Source: Mytilus edulis (taxonomy: Eukaryota). From it: DNA of 64,000 bases. The DNA is taken from contig NC_092347.1 of the NCBI RefSeq assembly GCF_963676685.1, positions 98,828,001 to 98,892,000 on the forward strand, read 5' to 3'. A program made the translations under genes and the position numbers. Below, piece after piece: positions 6,781 to 59,679 of this stretch (position 1 is the first letter of the stretch; every line of letters starts with the position of its first letter). Under the pieces are notes generated by a model that ran no database searches, was not told the origin of the DNA, and saw nothing but the letters and a program-made list of their open reading frames with translations.

Positions 6781-6835
6781 GGTCTAACCAGAAGCAACCA
6801 TATTCATCAAACTTTTCTTTCAACAATACGATATT

Positions 6836-18913: not shown

Positions 18914-19137
18914 TGTCAGTCTATGACTTTCAATCATTATCATTATGAAAAATTATGAAAAATTATTATTTTTTATAAAAAATATTTTGATAAATTGTTC
19001 GTTATAAAAATTCATAATTAATTTTGATTGATTTGTGATATTAGTATAATTCATCATATTTTATTATGAAACGAGAACTATATAAGGCCTCAATAACCAA
19101 GCATTCAACACATCACTGTACCATCGTATCAAAGCAA
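18914..19137 (+). promoter_or_regulatory. Promoter and non-coding exon 1 of Gly/Tyr-rich gene 1
   Basis: TGTCAGTCTATGACTTTCAA (18914), TGATTGAT (~19025), TATATAA (19079), and a ~30-nt exon ending CAAAGCAA|GTAAGT (19137/19138). The same layout precedes all four genes. Confidence 0.8.
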
Positions 19138-19628
19138 GTAAGTGTCTTTAGTCTATCATTAACTGTATTGTCTGTAACGCTGTTGAACTGTGCATCTCAA
19201 TCAAGTATTTTATTTTCTATCGATTGTTTAAACTTTGATATTTGTTGTTCTTTACTTCTTCACGATACTATTGTTTTTTTTTAATTTTTTGTCCATTCGT
19301 TTGATGTGTTTTATCATTTGATTTTGCCATTTGATTAGGGACTTTCCATTTTCCATTTTCCGCGGAGTTTAGTATGTTTGTGATTTTCTTTATTCGTTAC
19401 CTTTTTTATAAAGTATTTCTGGTCGCTTAATGATGCACAAGATATCGACAAGAAAAGTATGCAACCGTCAGTAATATGAACAACTTTTTGTCATTGAAAT
19501 TTTATTCGGTCAGGCAACTATGTCAACTCTTTTATTAATAGTGAGACAATCATAATTTGTCCCACTTGTCACCTCGTGTATTAAGGATTGTGTACCCTTG
19601 TGTTGATTCAATGCTAAACATATGGAAA

Positions 19629-19965
19629 TTTTATAGAAAGTCCACAGCATTTATCCTTGTACTCTTATATTTGGCAATTTCATGACTGATAGATTTTTGC
19701 TTGCAGTGCTAACATTGATTTCCTTAAAACGAGTTTATTAATGTAGCTATTGGTAATTTTATAACAAAAATCTCTGTATTAAAGGCTGTGGATTTTCTAT
19801 AAAAATATTGGTTTGTTTTATAGAAAAACCACAGCATTTATCCTTGTACTCTCATATTTGGCAATTTCATGACTGATAGATATAAGATTTTTGCTTGCAG
19901 TGCAAGCATTGATTTCCTTAAAACGAGTTTATTAAGGTAGCTATTGGTTATAAAAATATTGGTTT
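19629..19965. repeat. ~125-bp direct duplication with a short inverted segment between the copies (intron 1 of gene 1)
   Basis: TTTTATAGAAA(G/A)(T/A)CCACAGCATTTATCC...GTAGCTATTGGT occurs at ~19629 and ~19816, with the inverted GCTGTGGATTTTCTATAAAA at ~19785. Confidence 0.75.
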
Positions 19966-21933
19966 ATTTGCCACAAAGTACTCTTTTTCTATCAAATGCA
20001 ATGAAGCAATATATAATAATGCTTTGCATCAAGTTTCCCCTTGGTATATGTACAAATTGGCCTATCTCTATTATTCATTACATCTGTAGTTTTGATAAAA
20101 TTGAAGTTAAATTCGTTAAAAAATGGCTGCAGAAGGGGCCATAAACCTTAAAGACTTTAAACTGTCGTACGAAGAAATAGTAGAAAAATACAAGTTCGGT
20201 TGTAATCCCCATTTTTTTTTCTAATTAGAATTAAATGCATAACAGTGTGGTCGACAGTAAAACGTTTGTAGGTTGTAACTTGTTTGTCAACGACTATGAT
20301 TTTATGCTCACCCAGTCTGTCAGAGGCCCTCCAGTGGGGATTGAAATATTCACTTGTTACACATTCCGATACAAAGCTTGAAAGGAATTTGTTTTAAATA
20401 TTTATTATAATCATCACATACAACCGTGTCATTTATAAGAATAATAATGTTCAGAGATGATATTATTTAATAATAATAAAAAAATAGGTTTATCCATTGT
20501 AAAAAAAAATATTAAGTTGATGGGGTTAATTCACAAAATATCTCATTGATTAAGAGCACAACTACTTCTACGGTGTGATCATTTAAGAATGGCCTACTAT
20601 TTATTCAATGCGTATACATGTGGGTTTTGTTTGTGAAGAGTTCTGGATAATTAAAAAATCATTTGATTTCTTTGTTTAATACCATAAAACGATTCATTCT
20701 TTCAGATATTTGTCACTTTGCCTTATCTTCAAGTCCAACACAATTTCTCACGTTTCTTACAAAACTTATATTCTTGTGATGTATTCTTTTGTTGGAAAAA
20801 AAATGTATTGATATAGATAGATATAGGAAGATGTGGTATGAGTGCCAATGAGACAACTCTCCTCCCAAGTAATAATTCATAAAAGTAAATCATTATAGGT
20901 CAAGGTACGACCTGCAACACGGAGCCTTGGCTCACACCGAACAGCAAGTTATAGAGGGCCCCAAAACTACTAGTGTAAAACCATTCAAACGGGAAAACCA
21001 ACGAGAAACGAAAAACACATATGAGCTACATAAACAGACGACATCATGCATTGTAACTTTTAAAGCCAATTAAGTAAAAAAAGATAATCTGAAAGAACGT
21101 GCGATATCATATTAGGAAAATACATGGTCAAACCATAACAAAAAATCAAGTAAAGAATTTTAAGTATTCAACCTTTATAGCTTGCTGTTCGGTGTCAGCC
21201 AAGACTCCGTGTTGAAGGCCATTTTTATTTATTTTCAAATTACAAAGGTTATTCCTGATTAGTATTTTTAATTATTTTATTTAGGCGTTTAGAACCTTTG
21301 GTGACCTCACAGTTTAAATTTCTATGATAAGTACGTCGTGAACAGTGGGCATTACAGACGAACGTTCACCTAATTTCCCCCAGTCAATGAATGGCCATAG
21401 CTACACTGTTATGAATTTCATTCTATAAGAAAATTGTATCTGAGGAATTATATACAAATGATCTGCCTAACAGCGACTTCTGTACTTGTACTGTAATAAC
21501 GTAGAAAGCGGAAACTATCTGGTGGCGCATATCTTTAGTCTTACCAAATAAGATAGAAGAGATTTTTTTTAAAGAAAAAGAAGTACAGCAATGACTCATC
21601 CCTCTGCGGTCTTTTTTGTACATTAAATTAAAACCAGGTTCTACCAAACATGTTTTTCTTAAAATGCCCTTAACGAAGGCAGGAATATGGCAGAATTTGT
21701 CAAATTGTCTGTTTCTACGTGTATTGGCGTTTGTATTTTGTTGCAGTTCAGTGTTTCTGTAGTTCCGTTGTTTACAATTTGTTTTTGTGTTTTAATTTGT
21801 AACTTTTGATGAAGGTGGTATACCTCTGTTGCCTTTATTGACCAACAATAGCCAAACTGAATTTCCGGCTATTGCATTCGAGATTCTCTTATTAAGTACT
21901 CTGTAACTAAGAACATTTTTTTTCTATTGCAGA

Positions 21934-22985
21934 ATGCAACTCTTAGTCGGAATTCTCCTGGTTATCTGTAGCGCAGTCAGCGCATCCTATAAAGGAGGAT
22001 ATGGTGGATACGGAGGTGGATACGGAGGATACGGAGGTGGATTCGGTGGAGGATTCGGCGGAGGATTCGGTGGTGGATACGGAAGAGGAATCGGAGGTGG
22101 ATATGGAGGATATGGATTCGGTGGCGGATACGGAGGATACGGTGGCGGATACGGTGGTGGATACGGAGGCGGATATGGAAGAGGAAAAGTTGTTATCGTT
22201 AAAGGCGGTTATGGTGGCGGTTATGGGGGTTATGGTGGTGGATTAGGAGGTGGATATGGTGGTTTCGGAGGTATTGGAGGAGGATATGGTGGTTATGGTG
22301 GTTATGGAGGTGGTTATGGTGGTTATGGTGGTTACGGACGTGGATTCGGTGGATTTGGAGGTTTTGGTGGTGGATATGGTGGAGGATATGGTGGATACGG
22401 ATACGGAAAGGGAAAAGGTAAGATAATTTCTGCAGAAAATATTATTTTGTCTATTATTTTATGACATGATGTTGATAGCTATTCAAGTACAAGATACATG
22501 ATGTTGATAGCTATTCAAGTACAAGACAGACATAACTCAGAACTTACAGAACTTTGAAAAACTAATTTCAGTTAAACCTCAATAAGAATTACTTGTAATA
22601 TCCATTTGTTATTGATTATATGCTAATTTGTTATTGTTTTCACACAATTCCGTATTGTTGTTTTTAAATAGGTACGTGAAATATTACTTCACCAATCTGT
22701 AATAGACTATTTTCATGTTACCGACTTTTGACTCCTGAGTTATTATTTTTTGACCGGTTACCTTCTCCAATGTTGGACATTATGGAACTCACTTATTGTT
22801 TATTTTCGTAAACAATACCCATTAAAATGTGTATTTACCATGTTTACCGATCATAAAAAAAATAAATACTGCTGAGGCAATAAATAAACTTAAATAAAAC
22901 AACAATCCGAAAAACAAAAAGATATCTTTGTAAAGCGAAAGTTATGCTATGATAACATTATGTTCTTTATTTTGCAGGATATTAA
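21934..22985 (+). CDS. Secreted Gly/Tyr-rich structural protein, copy 1 (coding exons 21934-22417 and 22978-22985; 163 aa ending GKGKGY)
   Basis: Acceptor ttgcag|A-ATG, signal peptide MQLLVGILLVICSAVSA, GGY/GGF repeats, central GKVVIVKG, donor AAAG|gtaag, last exon ttgcag|GA TAT TAA. Confidence 0.9.
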
Positions 22986-23169
22986 ACACAGAATCTAACC
23001 CAGAACGGACAACGAATGCTTTTCTTTTTTACATTTCTGATATAAAATATAATCGTTGCATTTAATTTGTGTTGTTTTACCTTCTTTCATAAATCTACAG
23101 TCCCTTTATAGACTTAACCTCATAGAATCAAATCGACTAAACTGTGTGAGAAAGCAAGTCAACCTCGAA

Positions 23170-23430
23170 AAGATCATCTTAATATTTAGAGTTCTCGATG
23201 CTACACATTGCTATTCCCTATACTGGATTAAAAGATCATCTTAATATTTAGAGTTCTCAACGCTTCACATTGCTATTCCCTATAATCGATTGAAAGACCA
23301 TCTTAATATTTAGAGTTTTCAACGCTTCACATTGCTATTCCCTATAATCGATTGAATGATCATCTAAATATTTAGAGTTCACAAGTTAATCTCAACGCTT
23401 TACATTGCTATTCCCTATACTCGTTTGAAG
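23170..23430 (+). repeat. 62-bp minisatellite B, 4 copies, downstream of gene 1
   Basis: Unit AAGATCATCTTAATATTTAGAGTTCTCAACGCTTCACATTGCTATTCCCTATAATCGATTGA at 23170, 23232, 23294 and 23356. Confidence 0.9.
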
Positions 23431-26400
23431 GATCGACTAAGTCGACTCATTACAGGGAGTTTTTCTACAGAAATAGAAAACTTATATACAAGTTCCATGT
23501 TTGATGTCCCGAAACACTATGTTGTGTCTTCTGTACTATCATTTGTCTGTTTGTCGCCATGGCGTTGTCAGTTTATCTATGAGTTTGACTCTCCCTCTGG
23601 TATCTTATGTCCCTCCTTTATAACTATTGAAATATCCCTCTGATTCCCACAACAAATGCACGGAACATGTTATCTTCAAAATAAACTTTCAGTACTTATG
23701 CATGCCGCCAATTCGTGTTACGCTGTGGTTAAATTTGTATACTCGATTTTCAATTTTGCTTTTGTCCTATGACTCTATGCAATTCTTTTCTTCGTTGACA
23801 TATTTGTTTGCTTATATAGTGATTTAGGTAACAATAAAATGTTGACTGATGTACCCCTATTTTTGACGTTTTAACGTAATTCTACTGTTTTGTATGTTCT
23901 CACATTGCTTCAAAAATAATAAAATTTGATGCTACTGTAATACTAGTGAGAGGTTCAGCTAGCTTTTCTACGATGTTTAATCACAGTGTTTTATCACGTC
24001 TTAGATTGTGATTAACCATTTACGTCTGGTCTTTTAAGTAGTTTGTAGTTGTAATTTTATTGTTTTATTTTTTATTTGTTAATAAAAGAAATAATTAATA
24101 ATCAGCCAGTCCATTTTTTAAATTTTAGTTTAATGCAACTATATGTACACTATTTATTTGTTTTACAGTTCGATTTAGAGAAAATACCGACATACATGTA
24201 GCTTGATAAAACAACTAATTATCAAATTACAAACACAAATCTATATTAATATTCTTGTTATTGTAATATAATACTTCAAATGACACAGTTACAAATCTGA
24301 TCTTGAACAGTATAAATTTCAGTCGGAAACCCGGTTGAAATAGAACAAAAGAATCGAAGCTCTTTGTTAGAGCAGGCGATAAATGCTTACTGTAATGTTT
24401 ACCATTGTGACAAAAAAAATTTAAAAATAAATAGAAACAAACAAAATTACAATTTTCTTCTCAATTGCGAAGTGTTTTATTTTAAAAACACCATTTGCAT
24501 AAGTTTTCAATTTATCTAGTACATAGTTAAGCAAAACAATTAGATATCAAGTCGACGACATGGGTATCTTTCAAGTTGGATGTAGAAAATGCGTAACCTC
24601 CGATTTTTTTTATAAAAATGTACCACGGACGAAAAACATATCAATCTATTAGTTCAGTAATTTTCGTGTCTGCCCTTCCATTTTGTGACTTAAGAAAAAA
24701 TTTCAACAAATGGGTAACAACTGTATCGAAAAGAGAGAATCGAGTGCACCTTTTTATGTAAGGGCGTGTTTGAGTAGAATATTTTGTCTTGATATCGTAC
24801 AAAGCAAGAATATTTCATACATCGTTTCGCTTCAGATTCTATCATTTTTATATATCAAAGCTACAGGTTGACTTTATAACATAAAAAAACACAGTACTAA
24901 AAGATGAAATATATGGGTCAAATGAAATACCTATCTAATGAATCACAAAATAAGAGTAGGTGTGTTCGAATAGCTTTTTTTTTTACTGAAAGTACTTGAC
25001 GACAGTCTTTCAAGTTGGATGATGAAAATGCATATCTTCGAAAAATTATAATTTTTTGTGTGTGATAACCAGGGTTTATAGTCTTCAACCACTAAAACAA
25101 TCTAGTCTGCCCTTCCACGAAATATTTAATTAGAATTTTTTTAAATGTTGATGAATTTTCGAAAATTCCACCTAACAACAGATCAGACAATAGTTTTAAG
25201 TTGAATCAATGCAGATAAGATCATTAACTGATTCTCATTAGCTAGTTGATACATTTGTCTTTTTAAATACAACTGACATATCAGGACCGTAATGGTGCAA
25301 TGTGGATAAATTTATCGGTTTCCAAGAGCAAAATTGGCAGCGCGTCATCCCTACAATGGCTTCCATTTCTACGATTGTGAAAATGAACTGGCGTAATGGG
25401 GAGATAATTTTGATGAAGTAGAATCCTGACTAATTTGTTTTTAGAAATTTACCTGTGATGTCTTTTTTGTGACGATGACCAAGTCGTGTGAAAGACGTTT
25501 TGTGATCCTGTTTTGTTTGCTGTCCTATGTTGTTTTACGTGTTCGTTTTTATTCTGTGGTTAGCATGTCGAAATTTACCATTGTATTGTTTATTTGTGTA
25601 TTTCTCTGTACTGAAAGTTCTTGAATTAATTTTCACTGTATTCCTGTCACGTAATAGTGTTATCTAAGTGTTGTTAATATAATTGCTCTAATAGCACGAG
25701 TTTTGTTACCGATTTGAATTTTCATAAGAGTTTGGTAAATAAGTGGTTTTTAGAGGTCAGATAAAGGACGCCTCCGGGTGCGAGAATTTCTCGCTACATT
25801 GAAGAACTGTTGGTGACCTTCTGCTGCTGTCTTTTCTACGGTCGGGTTGTTGTCTCGTCGACAACATTCCCCATTTCCATTTTCAATTTTATTTAATTTT
25901 TTTTAAATGTATATTATATTCAGACATACAAAATAAAATGTTTGAAAGTCTGCGCTGGCTTCCAAATGATTGTAAAATTAACATAGAACTACTAACCTTG
26001 GGTAGTTGTCTTCTTTCTCCAGAGCAAAACCAAACCATTTTCAAAAATGTCTTAAAAGTTAGGAAAGATTTGAAATTGTCTAGATAGCAATGCATGATCG
26101 CATACACATCATGATCTAAGTAAAATTCTTCCCCCTTTTTTTGTCCTTTTTATTTTTCGTTTTTTTAAATTTGTATTTTATTTTTTTGTGTTTCTGTTTT
26201 CTAAATATTCATTTATTTATTTATATATTTTTTTCTTTCTGTATTATTATTTTTTTCTTTTTTCTTCATTTTCTGTCTTTTGATTCATATTTATATATAT
26301 ATATATATATATACTAAATAGATATACCATTCTATACATGCATGCTCATACATTAATTTTTGAATTATATTGCTATAAATGTTAAATAGAGAAGACTTCA

Positions 26401-26637
26401 TAAGTCTGTTTGACTTGTGTCTTATCCAATTTGTACTTAAACAAATAAAATATGTTTAACTAAAACCGCTCATGTGTCAGAAATCAAGACTACGATACAC
26501 GTCAGCTCTTTTTTCTCACTTTTTGTGCGCTGCAGATTAAATCCAAATAGGACATGTCAACAATAACATTTTAATATGAAACATACAATTCAATGGTTTG
26601 TATCGTTATGTTTTTGTTGGTTTGTTGTTTTGTACAT

Positions 26638-28001
26638 ATTGAGGGAAGACACATTTAGCTTCGGAGCCGTATTGACAGGCCTAGGGGATCAAATCAAATA
26701 TTGAGGGAAGACACATTTTGCTTCGGAGCCGTATTAACAGGCCTAGGGGATCAAATCAAATATTGAGGGAAGACACATTTAGCTTCGGAGCCGTATTGAC
26801 AGGCCTAGGGGATCAAATCAAATATTGAGGGAAGACACATTTAGCTTTGGAGCCGTATTGACAGGCCTAGGGGATCAAATCAAATATTGAGGGAAGACAC
26901 ATTTAGCTTCGGAGCCGTATTAACAGGCCTAGGGGATCAAATCAAATATTGAGGGAAGACACATTTAGCTTCGGAGCCGTATTGACAGGCCTAGGGGATC
27001 AAATCAAATATTGAGGGAAGACACATTTAGCTTCGGAGCCGTATTGACAGGCCTAGGGGATCAAATCAAATATTGAGGGAAGACACATTTAGCTTCGGAG
27101 CCGTATTGACAGGCCTAGGGGATCAAATCAAATATTGAGGGAAGACACATTTAGCTTCGGAGCCGTATTAACAGGCCTAGGGGATCAAATCAAATATTGA
27201 GGGAAGACACATTTAGCTTCGGAGCCGTATTGACAGGCCTAGGGGATCAAATCAAAAATTGAGGGAAGACACATTTAGCTTCGGAGCCGTATTAACAGGC
27301 CTAGGGGATCAAATCAAATATTGAGGGAAGACACATTTAGCTTCGGAGCCGTATTGACAGGCCTAGGGGATCAAATCTAATATTGAGGGAAGACACATTT
27401 AGCTTCGGAACCGTATTGACAGGCCTAGGGGATCAAATCAAATATTGAGGGAAGACACATTTAGCTTCGGAGCCGTATTGACAGGCCTAGGGGATCAAAT
27501 CAAATATTGAGGGAAGACACATTTAGCTTCGGAGCCGTATTGACAGGCCTACGGGATCAAAACTTATATTGAGGGAAGACACATTTAGCTTCGGAGCCGT
27601 ATTGACAGGTCTAGGGGATCAAATCTAATATTGAGGGAAGACACATTTAGCTTCGGAGCCGTATTGACAGGCCTAGGGGATCAAATCAAATATTGAGGGA
27701 AGACACATTTAGCTTCGGAGCCGTATTGACAGGCCTAGGGGATCAAATCTAATATTGAGGGAAGACACATTTAGCTTCGGAGCCGTATTGACAGGCCTAG
27801 GGGATCAAATCTAATATTGAGGGAAGACACATTTAGCTTCGGAGCCGTATTAACAGGCCTAGGGGATCAAATCTAATATTGAGGGAAGACACATTTTGCT
27901 TCGGAACCGTATTAACAGGCCTAGGGGATCAAATCTAATATTGAGGGAAGACACATTTTGCTTCGGAACCGTATTAACAGGCCTAGGGGATCAAATCTGA
28001 T
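26638..28001 (+). repeat. 62-bp minisatellite A, 22 near-identical head-to-tail copies
   Basis: Unit ATTGAGGGAAGACACATTTAGCTTCGGAGCCGTATT(G/A)ACAGGCCTAGGGGATCAAATC(A/T)AAT. First and last unit starts differ by exactly 21x62 bp. There are no spacers. Confidence 0.97.
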
Positions 28002-28515
28002 ATTGGTTCTAAATAGATAAAAGATTAAATCAGTGAAAAAAACGGCATTCACTTAGAGAAACTTTTATGACCTAGGATGAAGTTTCTCGTTCAAATATTT
28101 TGACTTGATGTTTTAACAACTCTATTCTTAATGTATTTTTTTCTCATCAAAGATCGAGTTAACTGAAAAGTCTCTGAAAGTGGAATGAAACGAGGAATAT
28201 AGTCTGAATAAATATACATTTATTGACAAAAAAGTTTTTGTATTCTAGTAGATCAGAAAGAATCCGTTTGCAAAGGATATAGTGCAAGGATAAATTTTTC
28301 CATTGTTTGTTGTATTTAACGACGTTTGTTTCTAACATGACGTTTTGTAATCATAATCAACTAATATATTTGTTTTATATGACTCACCGAAGAAGAGCGT
28401 TATAAACTCATGAGACTAAATTCACCCCAAATTAAATTAAAAACATACATCAATTTGGAAAAAGCAACATAGCTAGGCTATCAAGATCATGTGTCATTTC
28501 TTAAATGTGTTATTT

Positions 28516-28963
28516 AATTTATTCGTTCATTGTTTAATCAGACGTTTTTTGGTTGAGTTAAGTCTGCCAATTGATATTTTATCGTATGTTTTTCTTTGTT
28601 GTGATGTTATGCTATTGTTTCAGAAAAAGGGAGAAGGTTTGGATCCATTAAAACGTTTAATCCCGCTGCAAATGTTTGCACCTGTCCTAAGTCAGGAATC
28701 TGATGTACAGTAGTTGTCGTTTGTTTATGTAATATATACGTGTTTCTCGTTTCTCGTTTTGTTTATATAGATTAGACCGTTGGTTTTCCCGTTTGAATGG
28801 TTTTACACTAGTAATTTTGGGGCCCTTTATAGCTTGTTGTTCGGTGTGAGCCAAGGCTCCGTGTTGAAGGCCGTACTTTAACCTATAATGGTTTACTTTT
28901 TAAATTGTTATTTGTATGGAGAGTTGTCTCAATGACACTCACACCACATCTTCCTATATCTAT
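28516..28963 (-). mobile_element. Non-autonomous dispersed element (Helentron/HINE-like) inserted in a T-run
   Basis: Absent from the paralogous site AATGTGTTATTTTTGCAAAT (~18111-18130). Related copies lie at ~20812-21220 and ~43984-44165. The classification is inference. Confidence 0.72.
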
Positions 28964-29144
28964 TTTTGCAAATTTTTAACTAAGAGGGTTAAGGGGAATG
29001 ATTGAGTTTTACTTCAGATTAGTTCAACAAACATCATCTATTAAAGTACTAGTTGTGAGTTAATTACTCCTACTATTATCTGATTATCACTAAATAAAAT
29101 ATTAGTAAACATTATGATTTCTTAAAAAAAATAATCGTTAATAT

Positions 29145-29186
29145 CATCACTGATGAGTCTTGTGTAGACGAAACGAGCGTCTGGCG
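29145..29186 (+). ncRNA. Minimal type I hammerhead ribozyme motif (intact core, weak stem I)
   Basis: catca CTGATGA GTCT-tgtgt-AGAC GAAA C-gagc-G TC tggcg: CUGAUGA and GAAA core boxes, 4-bp stem II, minimal stem III and a GUC cleavage triplet (29179-29181). Confidence 0.72.
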
Positions 29187-29885
29187 TAAATACAAAATTT
29201 AACTCTGGTATCTATGATGAGTTTATTAATATATTTATATTTATATCAAGTTTACAAAAAAAGATCTTTTATTTCGAGTAAAACCTTTCGAATCGAACAT
29301 CAACTGTCAAAACAATCAAAACAATCCTAGCAATTATCATAAACTCTCATTTTATATATTAAATAGCATTTTCTCTCTAAAAAACCAATAAAACAACTTG
29401 TTTTTAACAGTTTTTGATTTATATTTGTTGTATACCAATTATGTTATTCTTTTCAATTATCTTCCTTTCGTGAATACAATTATTTCTAAGTAACACAAAG
29501 GAATAAAATTACAAAAAAGAGAAATTTATCCTCTTCAAAAATTCCTTTATAAATATATTTATTTTGTGCTGGGTTTTCTAAAATATAAAATAAATAATTT
29601 CACACAACGGGCATAGATCTAACTCGTTCATTTAAGATTCAAAAATGCTCTGTAAAGTGAAATGTTTTGGCTTTAATTCTTAGGTAACTTTGGATTAAGA
29701 TCATTATTTATTTATTGAAATTTTATTATTTGTCCGTTATTGTTTAAGGCAGACCTGATAAGCTTTCAGGAACAACCAAATAAACAATAAAAAAGTAATT
29801 TTGTAGGTTAGAATTAAATCTGAGGGAATTTAAGGCGATAGTTTTAAAGCATATTAACAAACTATAGTTAAAAAGTGCAAAAATT

Positions 29886-30110
29886 TGTCAGTCTATGACT
29901 TTCAATCATTTATCATTATGAAAAATTATGAAAAATTATTATTTTTCATAAAAAATATTTTGATAAATTGTTCGTTATAAAAATTCATAATAAATTATGA
30001 TTGATATGTGATATTAGTATAATTCATCACATTTTATGATCAAACGAGCACTATATAAGGCCTAAACAACCAAGCATTCAACACATCACTGTACCATCGT
30101 ATCAAAGCAA
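29886..30110 (+). promoter_or_regulatory. Promoter and non-coding exon 1 of gene 2
   Basis: TGTCAGTCTATGACTTTCAA at 29886, TATATAA at 30052, donor CAA|GTAAGT at 30110/30111. Confidence 0.8.
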
Positions 30111-30819
30111 GTAAGTGTCTTTAGTCTATCATTAACTGTATTGTCTGTAACGCTGTTGAACTGTGGACTCAATCAAGTATTTTATTTTCGTACAAAAATG
30201 GCTACAGAAGGGGTCATAAACCTTAAAGACTTTAAACTGTCGTACGAAGAAATAGTAGAAAAATACAAGTTCGGTTGTAATCACCATTTTTCTTTCTAAT
30301 TATAAGAAAATTGTATCTGAGGAATTATATACAAATGATTTGCATAACAGCGACTTCTGTACTTGAACTGTAATAACGTAGAAAGGGGAAACTATTTGGT
30401 GGCGCATATCTTTAGTCTTACCAAATAAGATATAAGAGATTTTATTTTTTTTAAAGAAAAAGAAGTACAGCTATGACTCATCCCTTTGCTGTCTTTTTTG
30501 TGCATTAAAATAAAACCAGGTTCTACCAAACATGTTTTTCTTAAAATGCCCTGAACGAAGGCAGGAATATGGCAGAATTTGTCAAATAGTCTGTTTTTAT
30601 GTGTATTGGCGTTTGTATTTTGTTGCAGTTCAGTGTTTCTGTAGTTCCGTTGTTTACAATTTGTTAATGATGTGTTTTAATTTGTAACTTTTGATGAAGG
30701 TGGTATACCTCTGTTGCCTTTATTGAACAACAATACCCAAACTGAATTTCCGGCTATTGCATTCGAGATTCTCTTATTAAGTACTCTGTAACTAAGAACA
30801 TTTTTTTTTCTATTGCAGA

Positions 30820-31872
30820 ATGCAACTCTTAGTCGGAATTCTCCTGGTTATCTGTAGCGCAGTCAGCGCATCCTATAAAGGAGGATATGGAGGATACGGA
30901 GGTGGATACGGAGGATACGGAGGTGGATTCGGTGGAGGATTCGGTGGTGGATTCGGAAGAGGATACGGTGGTGGATTCGGAAGAGGATACGGAGGATATG
31001 GAATCGGAGGTGGATACGGAGGATATGGATTCGGTGGTGGATACGGAGGATACGGTGGGGGATACGGTGGTGGATACGGAGGCGGATATGGAAAAGGAAA
31101 AGTTGTTATCGTTAAAGGATATGGCGGTTATGGTGGCGGTTATGGGGGTTATGGTGGTGGATTAGGAGGTGGATATGGTGGTTTCGGAGGTATTGGAGGA
31201 GGATATGGTGGTTATGGTGGTTATGGAGGTGGTTATGGTGGTTACGGAGGTGGATTTGGTGGATTCGGAGGTTATGGTGGTGGATATGGTGGTATTGGAG
31301 GAGGATATGGTGGATACGGATACGGAAAGGGAAAAGGTAAGATAATTTCTGCAGCAAATATTAATTTGACTATTATTTTATGACATGATGTTGATAGCTA
31401 AGTACAAGACAAACATAACTCAGAACTTTTAAAAACTAATTTCAGTTAAACCTCAATAGTTGTAATATCCATTTGTTATTGATTATATGATAATTTGTTA
31501 TTATTTTCACACAATTCTGTATTGTTGTTTTTAAATAGGTACGTGAAATATTACTTCACCAATCTGTAATAGACTATTTTCATTTTACCGACTTTTGACA
31601 CCTGAGTTATTATTTTTTGACCGGTTACCTTCTCCAATGTTGGACATTCTGGTACTCATTTATTGTTTATTTTCGTAAACAAAACCCATTAAAATGTATA
31701 TTTACCATGTTAGCCGATCATAAAAATAATGAATACTGCTGCAGGAAATACAAGTTTTAGGAGGCAATAAGTAAACGTCAATAAAACAACAATCCGAAAA
31801 ACAAAAAGATATCTTTGTAAAACGAAAGTTATGCTATGATAACATTATGTTCTTTATTTTGCAGGATATTAA
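30820..31872 (+). CDS. Secreted Gly/Tyr-rich protein, copy 2 (30820-31336 and 31865-31872; 174 aa)
   Basis: Same signal peptide, repeats, GKGKVVIVKG core and GA TAT TAA last exon as copy 1. Confidence 0.9.
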
Positions 31873-32056
31873 ACACAGAATCTAACCCAGAACGGACAAC
31901 TAATGCTTTTCTTTTTTACATTTCTGATATAAAATATAATCGTTGCATTCAATTTGTGTTGTTTTACCTTCTTTCATAAATCTACAGTCCCTTTATAGAC
32001 TTAACCTCATAGAATCATATCGACTTAACTGCGTGAGAAAGGAAGTCAACCTCGAA

Positions 32057-32366
32057 AAGATCATCTTAATATTAAGAGTTCTCCATGCTACACATTGCTA
32101 TTCCCTATACTAGATTGAAAGATCATCTTAACATTTAGAGTTCTCAACGCTTCACATTGCTATTCCCTATAATCGATTGAAAGACCATCTTAATATTTAG
32201 AGTTCTCAACGCTTCACATTGCTATTCCCTATAATCGATTGAACGATCACCTTAATATTTAGAGTTCTCAACGTTTCACATTGCTATTCCCTATAATCGA
32301 TTAAATGATCATCTAAATATTGAGAGTTCTCAACGCTTCACATTGCTATTCCCTATACTCGATTGA
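32057..32366 (+). repeat. 62-bp minisatellite B, 5 copies, downstream of gene 2
   Basis: Units at 32057, 32119, 32181, 32243 and 32305; paralog of the array at 23170. Confidence 0.9.
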
Positions 32367-34339
32367 AAAAATCGACTGAGTTGACTCATTACAGGGAGAT
32401 TTTTCTACAGAAATAGTCAACTTATATACAAGTTTCATGTTTGATGTCCCGAAAAACTATGTTGTGTCTTCTGTACTATCATTTGTTTGTTTGTTTTTTT
32501 ATTTTTCGCCATGGCGTTGTCAGATTATCTATGAGTTTGACTCTCCCTCTGTCATCTTTGGTCGCTCTTTTTAAACGATTTAAATATCCCTCTGATTCCC
32601 ACAACAAATGCACGGAACATGTTATCTTCAAAATAACCTTTCAGTACTTATGCATGCCGCCAATCGTGTTATGCTGTGGTTAATTTTGTATTCTTGTTTT
32701 TCATTTTTGCTTTTGTCCTATGACTCTATGCAATTCTTTTCTTCGTTGACAAATTTGTTTGTTTTTATAGTGATTAAGGTAACAATAAAATGTTGACTGA
32801 TATACCTAGTGTGAATTCACATTACTATAAGACGTTTCACGGTACTTATCTATCCCAAATTCATGTATTTGCTTTTGATGCTATATTGGTTATTTTCATA
32901 GGATTTAGTCTAATGCTTAGTCCGTTTCTGTGTGTGTGTGTGTGTGTTTGTTACATTTTAATGTTGTGTCGTTGTTCTCCTCTTATATTTAATGCGTTTC
33001 CCTCAGTCTTAGTTTGTTACCCCGATTTTGTTTTTTTTGGCCATGGATTTATGAGTTTTAAACAGCGGTATACTACTGTTGCCTTTATGTACTCATATTT
33101 TTACTAGTGAGAGGTGTAACTAGCTTTTTAACCATGTTTAATTCACAGTGATTTATCACGTCTTAGATTGTGATTTACCAGATACGTCGTATTGTCTTTT
33201 AAGTACCGAACATGACCTGTTTTCGAATTTGACTGTTTAGCTGAATGTGAATTCGCATTGCTATAAAAAGTGTCACGGTATTTGTTATCCAAAAAATTAT
33301 GTATTTATTTATAATGTTGTATTTGTAATTCTGATCGGATATTGATAAATGTCTTATCGTTTGTAGTTGTAATTCTTTTTTTTTAATTTTCTATTTGTTC
33401 ATAAAGAAATGATTAATAATCAACAAGTTCATTTTTAAGATTTTAGTTTAATGCAACTATATATACACTATTTATTTGTTTTACAGTTCGATTTAGAAAA
33501 AATACCGACATAGCTATATAATACATCTAATTATCAAATTACAAACACAAATCTATATTAATATTCTTGTTATTGTAATATAATACACCAAATGAAATAG
33601 TTACAAATCTGATCTTGAGAAGTATCAATTCGTTTTAGAAATTTACCTGTGACGTCTTTTTTTGTGACGATGACCAAGTCGTGCGAAAGAAATTTTGTGA
33701 TTCTGTTTTGTTTGCTGTCCTATGTTGTTTTACATGTTCGTTTTTATTCTGTGGTTAGAATGTTGAAATTTACTCTTGCATTGTTTATTTGTGTATTTCT
33801 CTGTCCTGAATGTTCTTGTATCAATTTCCACTGTATTCCTCTCACGTATTGAGGTGTTCTTAATATCATTATTCTAAAAGTACGAGTTCTTTTTCTATCA
33901 AAACCAGGTCTAACCCACAATTTTCCTTATAATGTCCTGTACCAAGTCCGGAAAATGGCAGTTGTATATTCTAGTTCGTTTTTGTGTGTGTTGCATTGTC
34001 GTTTGTTTTGAGTTTACTTCAGTTTTCCTGTTGTTTCGTCGTTTTCCTTTTAGAGCTGATGTGTTTTCCATGGTTTTAGTTGTAACCCAGATTTGATTTT
34101 GTCTCAATTGATTTATAACTTTCGAACAGCGGTATACTACTGTTGCCTTTATTTCTACATAAGAAAGTATCTCTACCATGTCAGGAATATGCCAGTTGTT
34201 ATTCAGTCGTTTGATTTGTTTGAGATTTTGAATTTGAAATTAGATAATGGTTTCCGATTTGGATTTTCATAAGAGTTTGGTAAATTTTTTTGATGGTTTT
34301 TAAAAAAAAAAAAAAACCATTTCAACAAATAGTTAGTCG

Positions 34340-43327: not shown

Positions 43328-43376
43328 ATTTTTATAATCAAAATGCTTACACACAACTTTTTAAAAACGCAAAACG

Positions 43377-43607
43377 TGTCAGTCTATGACTTTCAAAAAT
43401 TTATGATGAAGAATGATTATTTCTCTCATTAAAAAATATCTTGATCAATTGTTTTTTTTAAATAAGAGTCGGTATAAAACTGCGTAAATTCTTTTGATTG
43501 ATTTGTGATGACATGTATACTATATCATATTTTTTTATAAATTCAGCAATATATAAGGCTCCTACAGCGAACATTCAGCACACCACTGGACTATCGTATC
43601 AAAGCAG
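43377..43607 (+). promoter_or_regulatory. Promoter and non-coding exon 1 of gene 3
   Basis: TGTCAGTCTATGACTTTCAA at 43377, TGATTGAT at ~43495, TATATAA at 43550, donor CAG|GTAAGT at 43607/43608. Confidence 0.8.
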
Positions 43608-45624: not shown

Positions 45625-47077
45625 ATGCAGCTCTTAGTCGGAATTCTCCTGGTTATTTGTAGCGCAGTCAGCGCATCCTATAAAGGAGGATATGGCAGTT
45701 ACGGAAGTGGATACGGTGGATACGGAGGTGGATTCGGTGGTGGATTCGGAAGAATCGGCGGTGGATACGGAGGATATGGTGGAATCGGAGGTGGATACGG
45801 AGGTTATGGACTAGGAGGTGGATACGGAGGATACGGACTCGGAGGAGGATACGGAGGATATGGTGGAATCGGTGGTGGATACGGAGGATACGGAGGCGGA
45901 TATGGAAAAGGAAAAGTTGTTATTGTAAAAGGTGGTTATGGTGGTGGTTATGGTGGTGGATTTGGTGGATTAGGTGGTTATGGTGGTTATGGATTAGGAG
46001 GTGGATATGGTGGTTTCGGAGGTATTGGAGGAGGGTATGGTGGTTATGGTGGTATTGGAGGCGGTTATGGTGGTTATGGTGGTTATGGAGGTGGATTCGG
46101 TGGATTAGGAGGTTATGGTGGTGGATATGGTGGTATCGGAGGAGGATATGGTGGATACGGATACGGAAAGGGAAAAGGTGAGATAAAGTCTGCTTTAAAT
46201 AATATTTAAACTATTATGTTCTGACCGGATCTTTATTGCCCAACGAATGGTTTACATTGATTTCGCTTATTTTTGTGCTATATGCATATTTCTTGAGCGA
46301 TGTGAGAAAACCATTTCTGATTATTAGTAAACTATCTATTCATAGCAAATCATTTGTCACAGTTTAATTATAACGTTAATTTTTTTTTTCAATTCTGCTG
46401 AATTTTCTATAATGACGTCCTGACAAAAGGCGACCATGCATCATAACGTCATATATCAAGAACACAACTCTGCAAATCTTTAAAACAAGAAGGATAGCAG
46501 TCATTAAAGAAACATATAACAGTACTAAAACTCGTGTATTACGATATTTCTCAACAGTTATCTTTCAACCATATTTTATGATTTTGATCCTTTTTTTCTT
46601 GGAACACTTTAAAGAATTTCATATTCTTATTGCCGCTTTATCTGCACATTTTTGAACAAATCATCTTTTGTGAGAAGAACGTAATATATTTCTCTCTCAT
46701 ACTGTAATAATTGTCAATACAGACATTTTTGATCATATAGAAAGCAAAGCAATAACCTGTACATGTTGTTCGATCTAAACATGGCCCACGATGAACGTCA
46801 CTTGAATTCATTTGGTATATGTTTCCTCTTCAAATAAAATACCAAAACTCATCTTCAAATATGTTCAAATACAGTTATGAATTCTTTTGAACGAAATACT
46901 AGTAAAAGGAGACATGGAATAAACGTTGATAAGACAACAATCCGACAAAACAATAAAACACAAATGCGATAAAGAATAAAAAAATATATATTTGTAAAAT
47001 GCAGATTTACATTACACAAAGTTATAACTTTCACTTTGCTATGATAACATTATATTCTTTGTTTTGCAGGATATTAA
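45625..47077 (+). CDS. Secreted Gly/Tyr-rich protein, copy 3 (45625-46177 and 47070-47077; 186 aa)
   Basis: ttcag|A-ATG, same signal peptide and core, donor AAAG|gtgag, last exon GA TAT TAA. The ORF-track start at 45568 is intronic. Confidence 0.9.
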
Positions 47078-49059
47078 ACACAGAACTTTAACAGAACGGA
47101 CGCATACTCTTTTTTTTTTTTTTTTTTACATTTCTGATATAAAATATAATCGTTGCATTTAATTTGTGTTGTTTTACCTTCTTTCATAAATCTACAGTCC
47201 CTTTATAGAATCAACACTATACACTACTTTTTCTGTTCTCAATTTAAAGATCGACCAGATCGTCTAATTTGATAAAAATTGAAAACGTAGAACTTCGATT
47301 GAGAATGGAAATGGGGAATGTGTCAAAGAGATAACAACCTGACCATATAGCAGACATCATTGTCATGTTTATGGTATTTACTTTGTGAATAGCACGCTGA
47401 TTCCAATAAGAAAATACTCTGAAGATATAGATTGATGACGTGTTGTCACGTGAGTGTCACATGAGTGCATACATATCCAAGTAACATATAAACGACTAGA
47501 AACGAGAATATATTGTCAAATGATTTCAACTATCAAATTGTTTAACTCACATTCCGTAGCAGTTACATCCCTAAACTTCATCGTACACCGTTTACAAATC
47601 GTAGGTTATACCTTAAACTCGTACATGTTCACACTATATAAACAAATAAGGATGTGCTCATTTCACCAAGAAACTCTGCTCCAACAGAATTATAAGAGAT
47701 AAATCGACAAATAACAAGGTTTATTGCAACATATTAGACTATATGTACTAAACAATTTTGATATTATACAAAGGTATTTAATAAAATAAACATGCTATAA
47801 AATAAGGTATATACCCCGCCACATTCTGTATGTATGTGTCTGTCCCAAGTCAAGAGCCTGTAATTCAGTGGTTGTCGTTTATTGATGTGGTTCATATTTG
47901 TTTTTCGTTCATTTTGTTTTACATAAATTAGGCTGTAAGTTTTTTCGTTTAAATTGTTCAACATTAGTCATTTCTGGGCATTTTATAGCTGACTATGCGG
48001 TATTTAGCTTTGCACATTGTTGAAGGCCATACGGTGATCTATAGTTTTAATTTCTGTCATGTGGTCTCTTGTTAAGAATTGTCTCATTGGCAATTGTACC
48101 TCACCTTCTTTTAATTTATAAAGACGATACTGTTGCAAGTCATTAAAAAAGGCACATTTTGACTTTAATATTATTCAGTTGTAGGGTCTATGCATCGAGA
48201 AAAAACACATTTATTCTAAAACCTGTTTTTGGCATGATACTGGTTTTGTTCTTCTCATTTATTTAATGATTTTATGATACTAAACCCTAAATCCCTAACG
48301 GGAGGAATCGTGCTAGATATTCATATGATGAAGACATAATCTTTCAATGAGTTGAATTGAGGTCTGGAGCTGGCATTCTTTGTTAATTTATGTGTCATTG
48401 TCATTTTGTTTAGTTTCTTTTGTTAAATATTCTGTCTTCGGATTCAGATTTTTAAACTGAGTTTTATTGTGCGTATTGATGTGTGTTTGTTTATTCCACA
48501 TTGGTTAGAGGTAAAGAGGAGGGTTAAAATCTCAAAAAACATATTCAATCGAGCCGACTGTCCGAAGTCAGGAGCCTCGGGTCTTCGGAGTAGAATATGA
48601 CGTCCATAATCACTGAACCAGTACATGTTTTCGTTTAGGGGCTAGCTGAAGATCGCCTCCGGGTAAGGGATTTTCTGGCTGTATTGAGGACCCCCTTGAT
48701 GGACTTCGGCTGTTATCCTCTCTTTTGTCAGATTGTTGTCTTTTTTCCACATTCCCCATTTTCATTCTCAATTTTAAGTTATCTAACATAAAAAGAAAAC
48801 AGTAGTACGCTTTATGGTTATCTACTTTGTTATGATTACTTCTAGGTGTACACATTAAAATCCAAACAAAAATATTTAAAATAAATTCAAAAGAAAATTC
48901 AGGAAGATTTATTCATAGAATCCATTTTTTAGTGTCCCTCGGCTTGTCGATTTTTCCAAGATAAATGTTATGAAGCTGGCACTATCTTTAAACTGATCTT
49001 TCTTATATAGATTAAGTTCTTCAATCAAATGTTGGTAACATATCACTTGATACATCCAT

Positions 49060-55107: not shown

Positions 55108-55785
55108 TTTTAGTTTTTTTTATTTTGTTATAACAATGATCTTATTTATATATAACAATTATGTCAGTCTGCAAGAATGAATAAATCCCCGAACAACATA
55201 ATAATAAATATTGTATTAAATCACATAATTCTTTAAAAGTACAAGAAACAAGTTTAAAAAAATGCTTCTACGAGAATGTTTCCAAACTAGCAATGTTCCT
55301 GGTTCTTCTTGACCTATGAAAAAAGTAAAAACACAAAAATACTGAACTCCGAGGAAAATTCAAAAAAGGAAAGTCTCAAATCAAATGGCAAAATCAATAG
55401 TTCAAACACATCAAACGAATGGATAACAACTGTCATATTCCTGACTTGGTACAGGCATTTTCTTATATAGAAAATAGTGGATTGAACCTGGTTTTAAAGC
55501 TAGCTAAACCTCTCACTTCTATGACAGTCGCATGAAGTTTTGGTCTTTATTATTGAGATCTGTTTTGGCCTTATAGTTGGCCTAAATATATACACACCTT
55601 TGACTTCTTAATTCTTATGACTTGAGTGTTATTTGTTAAAACAACTTTTAAAAGACTTCCAAGACACATCCAATTGACAAAACTCCTTTTTGTTTGTAGA
55701 TTTTAACTTTTGTTTAGGAATTTCTGGGTTTTGTGTTAATAATTTTAACCACACTGCTTACAAGCATTTTAAAAAAGGGAAAATT

Positions 55786-56023
55786 TGTCAATCTATGACT
55801 TTCAAAAATTTACGATAATGAAAAATGATAATTTCTCTCATAAAGAAAAATTATGACGATCAATTGTTGATTGTAACTAAATTTCGACACACAGAGGAAT
55901 AAATTACTTTGATTGATTTGTGGTAACATGTATAATACATCATATTTCATTATGAAACGAACAATATATAAGGCTTCTAGAACCAAGCATTCAGCACAAC
56001 ACTGTACCATCGCACAGAATCAA
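55786..56023 (+). promoter_or_regulatory. Promoter and non-coding exon 1 of gene 4
   Basis: TGTCAATCTATGACTTTCAA at 55786, TGATTGAT at ~55909, TATATAA at 55965, donor CAA|GTAAGT at 56023/56024. Confidence 0.8.
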
Positions 56024-58150
56024 GTAAGTTTCTTTAGTCTGTCATTGTAAAAATACAAATGTAACTGTGTAGTCTTTATAACTGACTGTTTTATCTCAAT
56101 TTATAGTATTTAACTTTTTGTCGATCTTTTTAGTTGACAAAATTTTGCCTTTGTCATTTTAGACAATTGTTATTACTTCTACCAGCTTAATAAATTATTT
56201 GTTAATCACTAAACAATGCATCAGAAATTAACAAATAAACCCCTACAGCAGTCGGCTATAAAATGTTCCCTTTTCTAAAAGATGAAAGTTGATATTTAAC
56301 AGGTTATTTCATTTCTAGATAAACTCAATGTATTTCAAATGACCTGCTGTTTCTATGTCCTTTTTGGTCGTTTGTTTGTTTACATCAGTCGGTTCTTGTA
56401 CATCATTTGGTTTAATATTCGCCTTCGAGTGTTTCACCTGAAGACTCTCTTGAAGCACCAAATTTATTGAGTGTTATTTCCATATCTTTCGTGAGTACTT
56501 TAAAATTGCAAAGTAATATTAGTTACACAGTGTGCAATTGTCCTAATACGAGAATTTGTTGACCCGATCAATTCCGTATTAGGACAATTGAACACTGTGT
56601 GACGAATTTATCCTGATTTTGTTATATTACATATTATTATATTCAAATTCAATGTTAGGACAATATCAATAAATATATTTTAGATATTAAATAAAAAAAT
56701 GTGAAAAATAAAAAATATTATGACTTCAAAGCAACTCAATTGTTTTTTGTTTTTTTTTATTAGATAATTCCAATTGACGTAATAGATAAGGGAGATAATT
56801 CCTATTGACGTGATAAAAAATTGTACTGAAATTTATTAGGACAATTTCAGCCAATCAAATTGCGAGAAATTACTCTAAATCAGGATTATATAAATTATCT
56901 ATAGTAGAACAACATGATAAATAGTGTCAACTAGACCGATTTCTGATATTAGTAAAGTAAGATCATAAGGTTTAAAACATTAAAAAATAATTGTTTGACA
57001 AAAATGAACATTTTTAAGGTGAAAATCAGTTTAAAAAAAATTAAAGAGATTTTTGAAGTTTGGAAAATGTGCAGATGAAAACATAACAATTGCCAAAATT
57101 GTATTACACGTGCAATTCAGTTATACAAACTACTTCTAAGTATAAAATTATTCGGTTTACAATTTGTCATGCGCTAAATCCACTAGAGTCTCAAAAACGC
57201 CCAAAAAACAGTGATATTGCTTCTTTCAAGGTTTTATTCTGTGCTGAAAATGCATATATTTCAAATGGTGAAATTTTGTCAAAAAAAATGCACAAGACAC
57301 AAACGTGCAATTAAGTATCATAAGTAGAAATAAAAATTTACAATTCCGTGACAAAAACGAAATGCGACACCAAGAACCACACATATTTTTATGTGATTTT
57401 TCATCATTATGTTAATATTTTGGTTTCAATAACAATAAATTAAGTCTACTAATTATTAAAGGGATTATGGTGACCTATTATTGTCCATAGATTTGTCTTT
57501 TGGTCTTCATGAATAGAGACAAAAAATGTATCTAAATGGTAGTCAAACCATAGTTTTATATATGTTTATTTAAAGCACATACTATTGTTTTGAATGCATA
57601 TTCAATATATCAATTTGATATCGTTGAGTAAATGACTCATCGTTTTGACCTTTACTTTCTGTAGTGAAACAAACAATACGTATCTGTTTTCATTGTTACC
57701 GACACTGGTATTTACTCCTTGAAGTCTGATAAAATTCAATAAATTGAAAGGGGGAATTATCTGATGGGCCATATCACTAGCCTGATGTTTATAATTTAAT
57801 TCACACTATGATATATCATTTTGCCATTTTCCGTTTTGAAATTCCCTCGGAGTTCAGTTGTTTTGTTATTTATGTTTTTTTTTATATAAAAGGGATGTGA
57901 GTTTTGTGTAGAATCATTTTACAGTAATGTAATCACGTTATCAAGCGTCTGTAGCCTTTCTTTACCATAAACATACGATACAATTACTCTTAAGTTATGA
58001 TGAATTAATTCTATATATGAAAATTTTTACTACTGATTGGCAAACGAATGATAGACATTTATACAAACGACACGGTCAAATTTAACTTCAAGGTGTTGTA
58101 TTCGAGTCTTTCTTAACTGTGTAACTAAGAACATTCTCCTCTATTACAGA

Positions 58151-59679
58151 ATGCAGATCTTAGTTGGTATACTCCTGGTTATCTGTAGCGCAGTCAGCGC
58201 ATCCTACAAAGGAGGATATGGCGGTTACGGAGGTGGATACGGAGGATACGGTGGTGGATTCGGTGGAGGTTTCGGAAGAGGATATGGAGGATATGGAATC
58301 GGAGGTGGATACGGGGGGTACGGAATTGGAGGTGGATACGGAGGATATGGAATCGGTGGTGGATATGGAGGATACGGTGGAATCAGAGGTGGATACGGTG
58401 GTGGATACGGAGGCGGATATGGAAAAGGAAAAGTTGTTATCGTTAAAGGATATGGCGGTTATGGTGGCGGTTATGGTGGATTAGGAGGTGGATATGGCGG
58501 TTATGGTGGTTATGGTGGTGGTTACGGTGGTTACGGAGGTGGATTCGGTGGATTAGGAGGTGGATTCAGAGGTGGATTCGGTGGTATTGGAGGAGGATAT
58601 GGTGGTTACGGTGGTGGATACGGATACGGAAAGGGCAAAGGTAAAATATTGTCTGCTTCATATAATAATTTGACTCTTATTTTCTGACTTGTTTTTTAGG
58701 CCAAAATAATGATTGACATTTATATATTCGTTTATTGACAGTAATTTTATCGAGGTACTAGAAATCAAAATTCATTTCTTTATATTGCAAATTAAACGAA
58801 ATTCATTTTCATTAAATTTAAGTTATTTGAAACAAATCAAAACATTTTAACCCAATGGTTTCATCCTATGGGTTTTACTAACTTAATATGGATCCATAGA
58901 AGGTCAGTAGCACACCAAATAACTCATAATTTGCATCGTGTATCAGTTACGGAAGGTTAAACGTGAATCAAATATAACAGACATGTAATAGTCTTTGTTT
59001 ATAAGATTACATATATGATAGTTGCATTTTAGAGTCATATAAAACTTAAATATGTAACTTAACTCCTGTAAAATATATACGATTAATGCATTTTTTACCA
59101 TACACAATTCGCGGTGAGGCTTAGTTTCGGAAACAAATTGTCTCAGTTAGAAAATTAGAAAATGCCTGTACCAAGTCAGGAATATGACAGTTGTTATCCA
59201 TTCGTTTGATGTGTTTGGACTTTTGATTTTGCCTTTTGATTTTGGACTTTCCTTTTTGAATTTTCCTCGGAGTTATATATTTTTGTGTTTTTACTTTTTA
59301 TTAATAGACAATTGTTTTTAAAAGCTGTAAAACTGTGTTCTATTAGTACATTATTGAAATCTCCCATGATGAACAAACAACTTTTCAGTCTAAAACGTAA
59401 CTTTATCTCCAAGACTACAAAATAATGATTTAAAATTTGAAAATAAATTTTGATAATTGAAATTAAAATCTGACGAAAGGTTACCTGCAATTTGCAAGAA
59501 ATGCGCCGACCGTCATTGCGTTAATACACGATAGAATGCAAAATATATTACTTGTTTAAAAATCGGATTAAATAAGCTGAATTTAAAATTTTAATAAGGA
59601 AGAATCAACAAAACAAAATGATAACTTCATAAAGCCAATGTTATGCTATATATTTTAATTTTATTTTGCAGGATATTAA
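58151..59679 (+). CDS. Secreted Gly/Tyr-rich protein, copy 4 (58151-58640 and 59672-59679; 165 aa)
   Basis: ttacag|A-ATG, MQILVGILLVICSAVSA, GKGKVVIVKG, donor AAAG|gtaaa, last exon ttgcag|GA TAT TAA. Confidence 0.9.

Follow-up and report, generated by a model that had tools for sequence, protein, structure and literature searches.

What does a mussel build from a tandem array of genes whose products consist, over some five-sixths of their length, of glycine and tyrosine? The question is raised by a 64-kb stretch of the Mytilus edulis genome (contig NC_092347.1, positions 98,828,001 to 98,892,000 of the forward strand; hereafter the window, with positions counted from its first letter), an AT-rich region (32.6% GC) with many repeats in which four co-oriented genes encode small, secreted Gly/Tyr-rich proteins. 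We consider it likely that these are disordered matrix proteins which the mantle secretes for the periostracum, the insoluble shell matrix or both, and which are hardened by tyrosine oxidation. Gly/Tyr-rich secreted repeat proteins are a well-known class that has evolved repeatedly in mollusc mantles, and the contribution of the present analysis lies in the full sequences and the gene structure of a Mytilus family for which our searches found a partial, mislabelled transcript in print and one broken gene model in databases.

Structure and coding frame of the four genes

A six-frame search of the whole window recovers SYKGGY and KVVIVK four times each, always on the forward strand, and neither tblastn queries taken from the signal region and the core nor a scan for Gly-rich segments revealed a fifth gene copy within the 64 kb. 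The sequence-only reading had described genes in which a signal peptide, SYKGGY, a first block of GGY-type repeats, the core, a second block and the tail follow one another in this order, and all the points of that description that were checked proved right (Table 1). In a four-way alignment the promoter, the splice sites and the 3' untranslated region (UTR) are common to all four copies. Every gene comprises a TATA box, an exon 1 that is short and non-coding, with the donor GTAAGT, an exon 2 that starts one base 5' of the ATG and ends within the last Gly codon, and an exon 3 that contributes Gly-Tyr-stop; the conserved promoter block contains TATATAAGG. Intron 1 spans 708-2795 bases and intron 2, placed inside the last Gly codon, 528-1031 bases. 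Over their first 140 bases the four last exons contain no AATAAA; TATAAA, followed about 25 bases on by a GT-rich block, is kept in all of them (23041-23073 in gene 1) and likely represents a variant poly(A) signal.

Splicing was checked for gene 1, and the introns of genes 2-4 rest on the conserved splice sites. The evidence comes from public sequencing runs whose types were guessed, 0 of 20 being recorded as RNA and none naming a tissue. The first joint (19137>21933, GT..AG) is seen in one of four runs (X14) and the second (22415>22976 cut+2, GT..AG) in two (X1 and X2); in the fourth run both joints have depth 0, although all 30 bins, introns included, are covered. Contigs from runs X2 and X14 match exon 2 without gaps over 460 bases (21956-22415, one other letter) and 429 bases (21987-22415, two other letters), respectively, which identifies gene 1 itself as their source. 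The coding indels listed in the runs are of 3 and 6 bases. Contigs of the runs also diverge, at 22002, 22221 and 22389, into other GGY-type sequences, one of the diverging ends carrying a Val-Val-Ile stretch and another Pro-Trp-Tyr; these ends point to further related genes of the same organism outside the window.

Comparison of the four copies shows that the Gly/Tyr frame is under purifying selection: third codon positions hold most of the differences in all six gene pairs, and the ratio of nonsynonymous to synonymous differences (pN/pS) lies between 0.12 and 0.22 in every pair, in codon alignments scored on bases alone. The common promoter, splice sites and 3' UTR, the third-position differences and the spliced joints hence establish the genes as real, and not as products of chance. 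Across the four genes no Gly has been replaced by Asp or Glu, as against at least five independent replacements by Arg or Ser (binomial p ~0.03, with events counted by eye), and the lack of acidic residues is therefore probably selected.

The spliced precursors comprise 163, 174, 186 and 165 amino acids (aa) in genes 1 to 4, respectively, and all end in YGYGKGKGY. Their 17-residue leader has a hydrophobic core and a putative cleavage site, placed by eye, with Val at -3 and Ala at -1. After residue 17 nine residue types are used (G, Y, F, K, I, L, V, R and S); the absence of Asp, Glu, Cys, Pro and His claimed earlier is found in all four mature chains, and Ala, Asn, Gln, Thr, Met and Trp are missing as well. 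Calculated values for the mature chains are 63-64% Gly, 19-20% Tyr, an isoelectric point (pI) of 9.3-9.5 and a mass of 13.1-14.9 kDa. As had also been noted, repeat number varies while the Lys-containing motifs stay fixed; Lys is in fact confined to these three motifs, and basic residues number 7-9 per chain. Tyr or Phe recurs mostly at intervals of 3-4 residues. The core KVVIVK, present in all four genes (gene 1 reads GRGK before VVIVK), is the sole stretch without Gly to exceed three residues, and beta propensity is highest there. AlphaFold2, working from an alignment of four sequences, gives a predicted local distance difference test (pLDDT) value below 50 to 140 of 161 residues and models the leader alone as a helix. 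Such low values are consistent with a disordered chain and, combined with the scan of runs and propensities, they support the earlier picture of a disordered polymer whose lone long non-Gly run is KVVIVK. A complex prediction with four copies of the core fragment scored 0.02 against a mark of 0.32, and bears neither way.

Table 1. Positions in the window of the four genes and of the duplication that carries two of them.
Feature	Position	Strand	Basis
Gene 1 promoter block, TATA (19079), non-coding exon 1, donor after 19137	18914..19137	+	four-way alignment, joint 19137>21933; start predicted
Gene 1 exon 2: ATG 21934, signal peptide, SYK, GGY block 1, core, GGY block 2, YGYGKGK	21933..22417	+	sequence and gapless contigs
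Gene 1 core KVVIVK	22186..22203	+	longest non-Gly run, beta-propensity peak
Gene 1 exon 3: Gly, Tyr, stop 22983-22985; 3' UTR with TATAAA (23041) and GT-rich block (23066)	22978..23075, end approximate	+	joint seen; poly(A) site predicted
Gene 2 promoter, TATA (30052), non-coding exon 1	29870..30110	+	alignment
Gene 2 exon 2: ATG 30820, core 31099-31116, precursor 174 aa	30819..31336	+	sequence
Gene 2 exon 3 (stop 31870-31872) and 3' UTR	31865..31960, end approximate	+	sequence
Gene 3 promoter, TATA (43550), non-coding exon 1	43361..43607	+	alignment
Gene 3 exon 2: ATG 45625, core 45913-45930, precursor 186 aa	45624..46177	+	sequence
Gene 3 exon 3 (stop 47075-47077) and 3' UTR	47070..47170, end approximate	+	sequence
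Gene 4 promoter, TATA (55965), non-coding exon 1	55772..56023	+	alignment
Gene 4 exon 2: ATG 58151, core 58430-58447, precursor 165 aa; closest to isotig 17419	58150..58640	+	sequence
Gene 4 exon 3 (stop 59677-59679) and 3' UTR	59672..59765, end approximate	+	sequence
Tandem duplication carrying genes 1 and 2	17327..33888 (17327-25702 vs 26317-33888)	+	flanking blocks 86-92% identical

Counterparts in the mantle and shell of Mytilus

The closest counterpart in print is isotig 17419, a partial transcript from dissected Mytilus edulis mantle (Freer et al. 2014, PMC3896809, Fig. S7-S8), which was filed there as shematrin/KRMP-like by similarity. It combines a (GGGYGGYGI)n block with a core of the form GKGKVV(V/I)VKGY set between GGY blocks, its own core reading GKGKVVVVKGY, with Val where the window genes have Ile (PMC3896809). 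The 29 residues that follow this core are, by eye, those of gene 4, and it is in gene 4 alone of the four that GGGYGGYGI (twice) and the 13-residue post-core motif of the isotig occur. On these likenesses the window genes are assigned to the same family as the isotig, with gene 4 as its nearest member, and the mantle expression expected for the family is thereby supported. The supposition of novelty holds in part: the family had already been seen in 2013-14 as a partial transcript under the shematrin/KRMP-like label, but it was not characterised; the available part of PMC3896809 shows 123 residues, with leader and tail missing, and gives no gene structure, copy number or function.

The label itself deserves comment. 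In exon 2 of genes 1-4, frame +1 turns the GGY repeats into an Asp/Glu-rich sequence and frame +2 into a Trp/Arg-rich one. MSI31, the acidic protein to which the isotig was also matched, is presumably a frameshifted shematrin-2. Its acidic tail, as given in Fig. S8 of PMC3896809, resembles a shifted GGY-repeat frame. The Trp-rich KRMP 'pseudo-match' of the isotig reads like frame +2 of the same transcript, and the last 14 residues of its acidic MSI31 match recur in frame +1 of genes 2 and 4. As far as the published figures extend, then, the KRMP-like and the MSI31-like acidic matches of isotig 17419 come from wrong reading frames.

A second counterpart links the family to the shell. 'GYS-rich' (gi|212817227) and 'GRS-rich-2' (gi|212816291) are Mytilus shell proteins/expressed sequence tags (Gao et al. 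2015, PMC4517812) of which a peptide was detected by mass spectrometry in nacre and fibrous-prism extracts. They share with the window proteins a 17-residue leader ending in CSAVSA (by eye, the same at 9 of 17 positions), a Gly block, a central non-repeat stretch rich in Val and Tyr, a GGY block and a KGY end, and they too are secreted and basic-looking. They differ in a first block rich in Trp and Arg, in a longer core with His and Glu, and in composition (48.6% Gly, 14.4% Tyr). The presence in shell of a Mytilus protein with the same layout supports the proposed shell-matrix link, with the proviso that the peptide evidence belongs to GYS-rich/GRS-rich-2 and not to the window proteins (PMC4517812). 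From such resemblances, judged by eye, and from the diverging GGY-type contig ends we infer a wider Mytilus group of Gly/Tyr proteins of this kind.

Protein databases add little to this picture. A full HMMER scan gave three hits, the best of them a hypothetical protein of Mytilus galloprovincialis (VDH91888.1, E 2.8e-19) that has both GGY blocks and YGKGKVVIVKGY and fits the bivalve origin deduced from sequence. Unlike the window proteins it is a 338-aa partial mis-model, in which a repeat exon is fused to unrelated sequence, and it has neither signal peptide nor tail and carries no assigned function; it is the only true relative found in protein databases. Another hit is an abalone cluster auto-named shematrin-like (E 2e-4). 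Word-index searches, each scoring 8000 candidates, returned no hit with residues 1-42, two tick Gly-rich secreted proteins of near length, both without core and tail, and one hit among longer proteins. Pfam assigned no family to either of the two family proteins scanned, a PDB sequence search gave no match, an exact look-up matched none of the four read-through frames left unspliced, and two metagenome DNA pattern scans gave no locus; the best feature score in the ESM Atlas, 0.81, serves as a lead only. KVVIVK, GKGKGY and GKVVIV are absent among the matches listed in a literature motif search, and PMC6359903 holds no occurrence of the family terms searched. All-repeat targets are readily filtered out, and empty protein searches do not prove absence.

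Names of the keratin, hnRNP or hornerin type are typical false labels for Gly/Tyr repeats. Table 5 of PMC4581086 labels mantle-enriched transcripts as keratin type II, hnRNP A3, RNA helicase A and hornerin, and these might include the window family; three small supplementary files of the same source, the expression tables not being among them, gave no match. The top mantle transcripts in that source include vitellogenin and mytimycin. For Perna, a very abundant shematrin-like mantle transcript is reported, in the available part of PMC6641155, without its sequence.

Function and rival explanations

If the products are matrix proteins of the periostracum or shell, signal cleavage would release a polymer that is disordered and free of acidic residues, in which an aromatic or aliphatic side chain recurs every 3-4 positions. 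Such a chain would be poorly soluble in seawater and might condense through Tyr/Phe and Tyr-Lys/Arg contacts. Tyrosinase could then convert some Tyr to 3,4-dihydroxyphenylalanine (DOPA) and on to quinone, which would couple with Lys and Tyr, and most readily so at the motifs at both ends in which Lys lies next to Tyr, to give a tanned, non-mineralising film. The KVVIVK strand may register neighbouring chains, or bind chitin or a partner, and this is the weakest step of the scheme. Because it has no Asp or Glu, the chain should not bind calcium, and this property would suit an uncalcified or framework layer. The deposition site, the DOPA, the cross-link sites, self-assembly and the role of the core are what we infer here; DOPA-based tanning of the periostracum is itself established (PMC3821031, PMC2896379).

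Several points weigh against this reading. Mytilus mantle also contains gonad and haemocytes, and presence in mantle tissue hence does not fix the role of a transcript. The proposed homology to the GYS-rich protein rests on a comparison by eye. The core motifs were found in none of five supplementary files of the PMC4517812 shell proteome, and no family member was found in four from PMC6641155. Both mytilid proteomes sampled mineral layers, and the missing core is weak counter-evidence because its tryptic peptide is five residues long and the other peptides are mostly long Gly/Tyr runs. Finally, the figures for the mature chains (63-64% Gly, 19-20% Tyr, 13.1-14.9 kDa) depart from those of periostracin, with 55% Gly, 12% Tyr including DOPA and 20 kDa.

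Periostracin is nonetheless the protein against which the family has to be held. Purified in 1979 from Mytilus edulis (Waite et al. 1979, as described in PMC3821031) and unsequenced as of 2013, it is a basic protein, insoluble in water, of 20 kDa with 55% Gly, 10% Tyr and 2.2% DOPA (PMC3821031); among the matches listed in our literature search, with subscription journals outside its reach, there is no report of its sequence. It resembles the window proteins in being a basic (pI 9.3-9.5 for the latter), Gly-dominated and Tyr-rich Mytilus product, and the gap in Tyr content and mass could be narrowed by the loss of Tyr to oxidation and by slow migration in gels. We regard it as unlikely, though by no means negligible, that the window genes, perhaps along with the relatives that carry the CSAVSA leader and the KGY tail, encode periostracin, the DOPA-containing protein from which the periostracum forms. 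If so, the periostracum, which protects mussel shells from dissolution, would be a tanned block polymer in which two disordered Gly/Tyr blocks flank a beta-branched core of six residues and Lys-Tyr motifs for cross-linking stand at either end, and this polymer would be simple enough for recombinant production. The locus supplies exact peptides and probes for testing the identity of periostracin.

Composition cannot distinguish shell materials from byssus, gamete coat or mucus, and the proteins might be structural or adhesive components of another tanned or gelled secretion, of the foot and byssus, the gamete coat or the mantle mucus. Motifs of the Lys-Gly-Gly-Tyr type occur in mussel foot proteins. 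In many animals, eggshells and further materials are formed by secreted proteins rich in Gly and Tyr (PMC4944945), and reproductive transcripts are abundant in Mytilus mantle (PMC4581086). Yet the sole tissue recorded for the family is whole mantle and the Mytilus protein of the same layout comes from shell, which makes such an origin improbable.

A further proposal, put forward as the alternative in the sequence-only reading, sees in the family cationic Gly-rich antimicrobial proteins of the acanthoscurrin/ctenidin type, released at the mantle surface or by haemocytes. Host-defence genes commonly occur in tandem multigene clusters. The window proteins are cationic and Gly-rich like these arachnid peptides, both near-length search hits are tick Gly-rich secreted proteins, and ctenidins are likewise interrupted by a 10-residue non-repeat (PMC6784228). 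The likeness in charge and Gly content stands, but the comparison is weakened on most other counts. Acanthoscurrin and ctenidin peptides measure 3.6-10 kDa, are haemocyte-derived and C-terminally amidated (PMC6784228), and serrulin shares their traits, whereas the window proteins measure 13-15 kDa and their precursors end in Gly-Tyr-stop, without a terminal amide-donor Gly; the tick proteins lack core and tail; selection on the paralogues is purifying rather than diversifying; and about 20% Tyr with 7-9 basic residues would better suit an insoluble matrix. We hold an antimicrobial function to be distinctly improbable.

That the functional product is read from another frame (Trp/Arg-rich or Asp/Glu-rich), or that the repeats are non-coding satellite, can be practically dismissed. 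The two alternative frames do stay open over 110-165 codons, and PMC3896809 aligned each of them to known shell proteins, but it is mainly at third positions in the Gly/Tyr frame that the genes differ, the stop reached after splicing belongs to this frame, and frames +1 and +2, rejected as coding candidates, have 2-6 stops in every exon 2 and no signal peptide.

Evolution of the cluster and its place among Gly/Tyr-rich proteins

Genes 1 and 2 appear as a recent tandem pair, united by informative sites in eight of eight segments (40 of 42 sites), and genes 3 and 4, whose non-coding segments are mostly 69-83% identical to gene 1, would be older. Identity of genes 1 and 2 to gene 3 is uneven (97% in the leader, 90% in the last exon, 69-76% in the introns) and is no more than suggestive of gene conversion. 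Within the genes, the pre-core block favours TAC and GGA and the post-core block TAT and GGT; pooled Tyr codons (TAC:TAT) stand at 37:19 before the core versus 13:43 after it, a difference significant on its own in three of the four genes, which are not independent of one another. This contrast in codon use suggests that each block grows by local slippage, with the core as a boundary; the changes in repeat number keep the reading frame.

Mobile elements and repeats surround the cluster. An 11.7-kb DNA transposon (5579-17328) has terminal inverted repeats, their first 14 bases identical, and TTAA on both sides; it carries frames for a THAP domain (6788-7279, +), a Mutator-like transposase of 631 aa (11879-13774, +) and a convergent P2RX7_C domain (16711-17088, -), a layout that we take to be that of the Kolobok superfamily. 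Its flanks, at 4683-4849 and 17327, are nearly contiguous in the gene 2 copy (26150-26317), so that the element, with about 730 extra bases, would either have been inserted 1.75 kb upstream of the gene 1 TATA box after the duplication or have been lost from copy 2. Broken reverse-transcriptase frames of the long interspersed nuclear element type lie at 2302-4882 (+) and 5978-6913 (-), the second within the transposon, as do nested GC-rich inverted repeats at 7682-9275 (up to 33 bases perfect, 1.1-1.5 kb apart) that resemble miniature inverted-repeat transposable elements. A 62-base unit is repeated in 22 copies, with 97% match, upstream of gene 2 (26636-28005), and a different 62-base unit lies behind the last exons of gene 1 (3.5 copies, 23168-23384) and gene 2 (5 copies, 32056-32368).

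Among known systems, the shematrins and KRMPs, known from Pinctada, had been named as comparable bivalve shell-matrix components, and this comparison stands as analogy in repeats and charge, but not in tails or domains. Shematrins have a signal peptide, GnY (n = 2, 3) repeats followed by a hydrophobic residue, and a basic Tyr-ended tail (PMC3896809). The same repeat trait is present in the unit breakdown of the window genes, but the shematrin tails RKKKY, RRKKY and RRRKY, as well as IRRKK and PRKKY, occur in none of them, in any forward frame of exon 2, and the spliced tail is GKGKGY. No Pinctada shematrin was among the protein-search hits, where low-complexity targets are easily lost, and the available part of PMC3325083 gives no shematrin exon structure. 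KRMPs likewise have a Gly/Tyr region and are basic (pI 9.5-9.8 versus 9.3-9.5); in KRMP-3 this region binds chitin, and quinone tanning has been proposed for it (PMC4498902). Their Lys/Trp-rich domain after the signal peptide is missing from the window proteins, in which no mature chain has Trp or Cys, and in place of the KRMP tails RKYKY, RPKKY and RRKY and a size of ~10 kDa we find GKGKGY and 13.1-14.9 kDa. Shematrins and KRMPs are best regarded, on these motifs, as analogues in their working, and the window proteins as members of neither. A broader frame is offered by silk-like structural proteins, defined by a signal peptide together with a domain in which Gly makes up at least 25% (PMC4944945): with a leader recognised by eye and 63-64% Gly in the mature chain, the four mussel proteins fall within this class, which is one of composition, reached from many origins, and not a lineage (PMC4944945).

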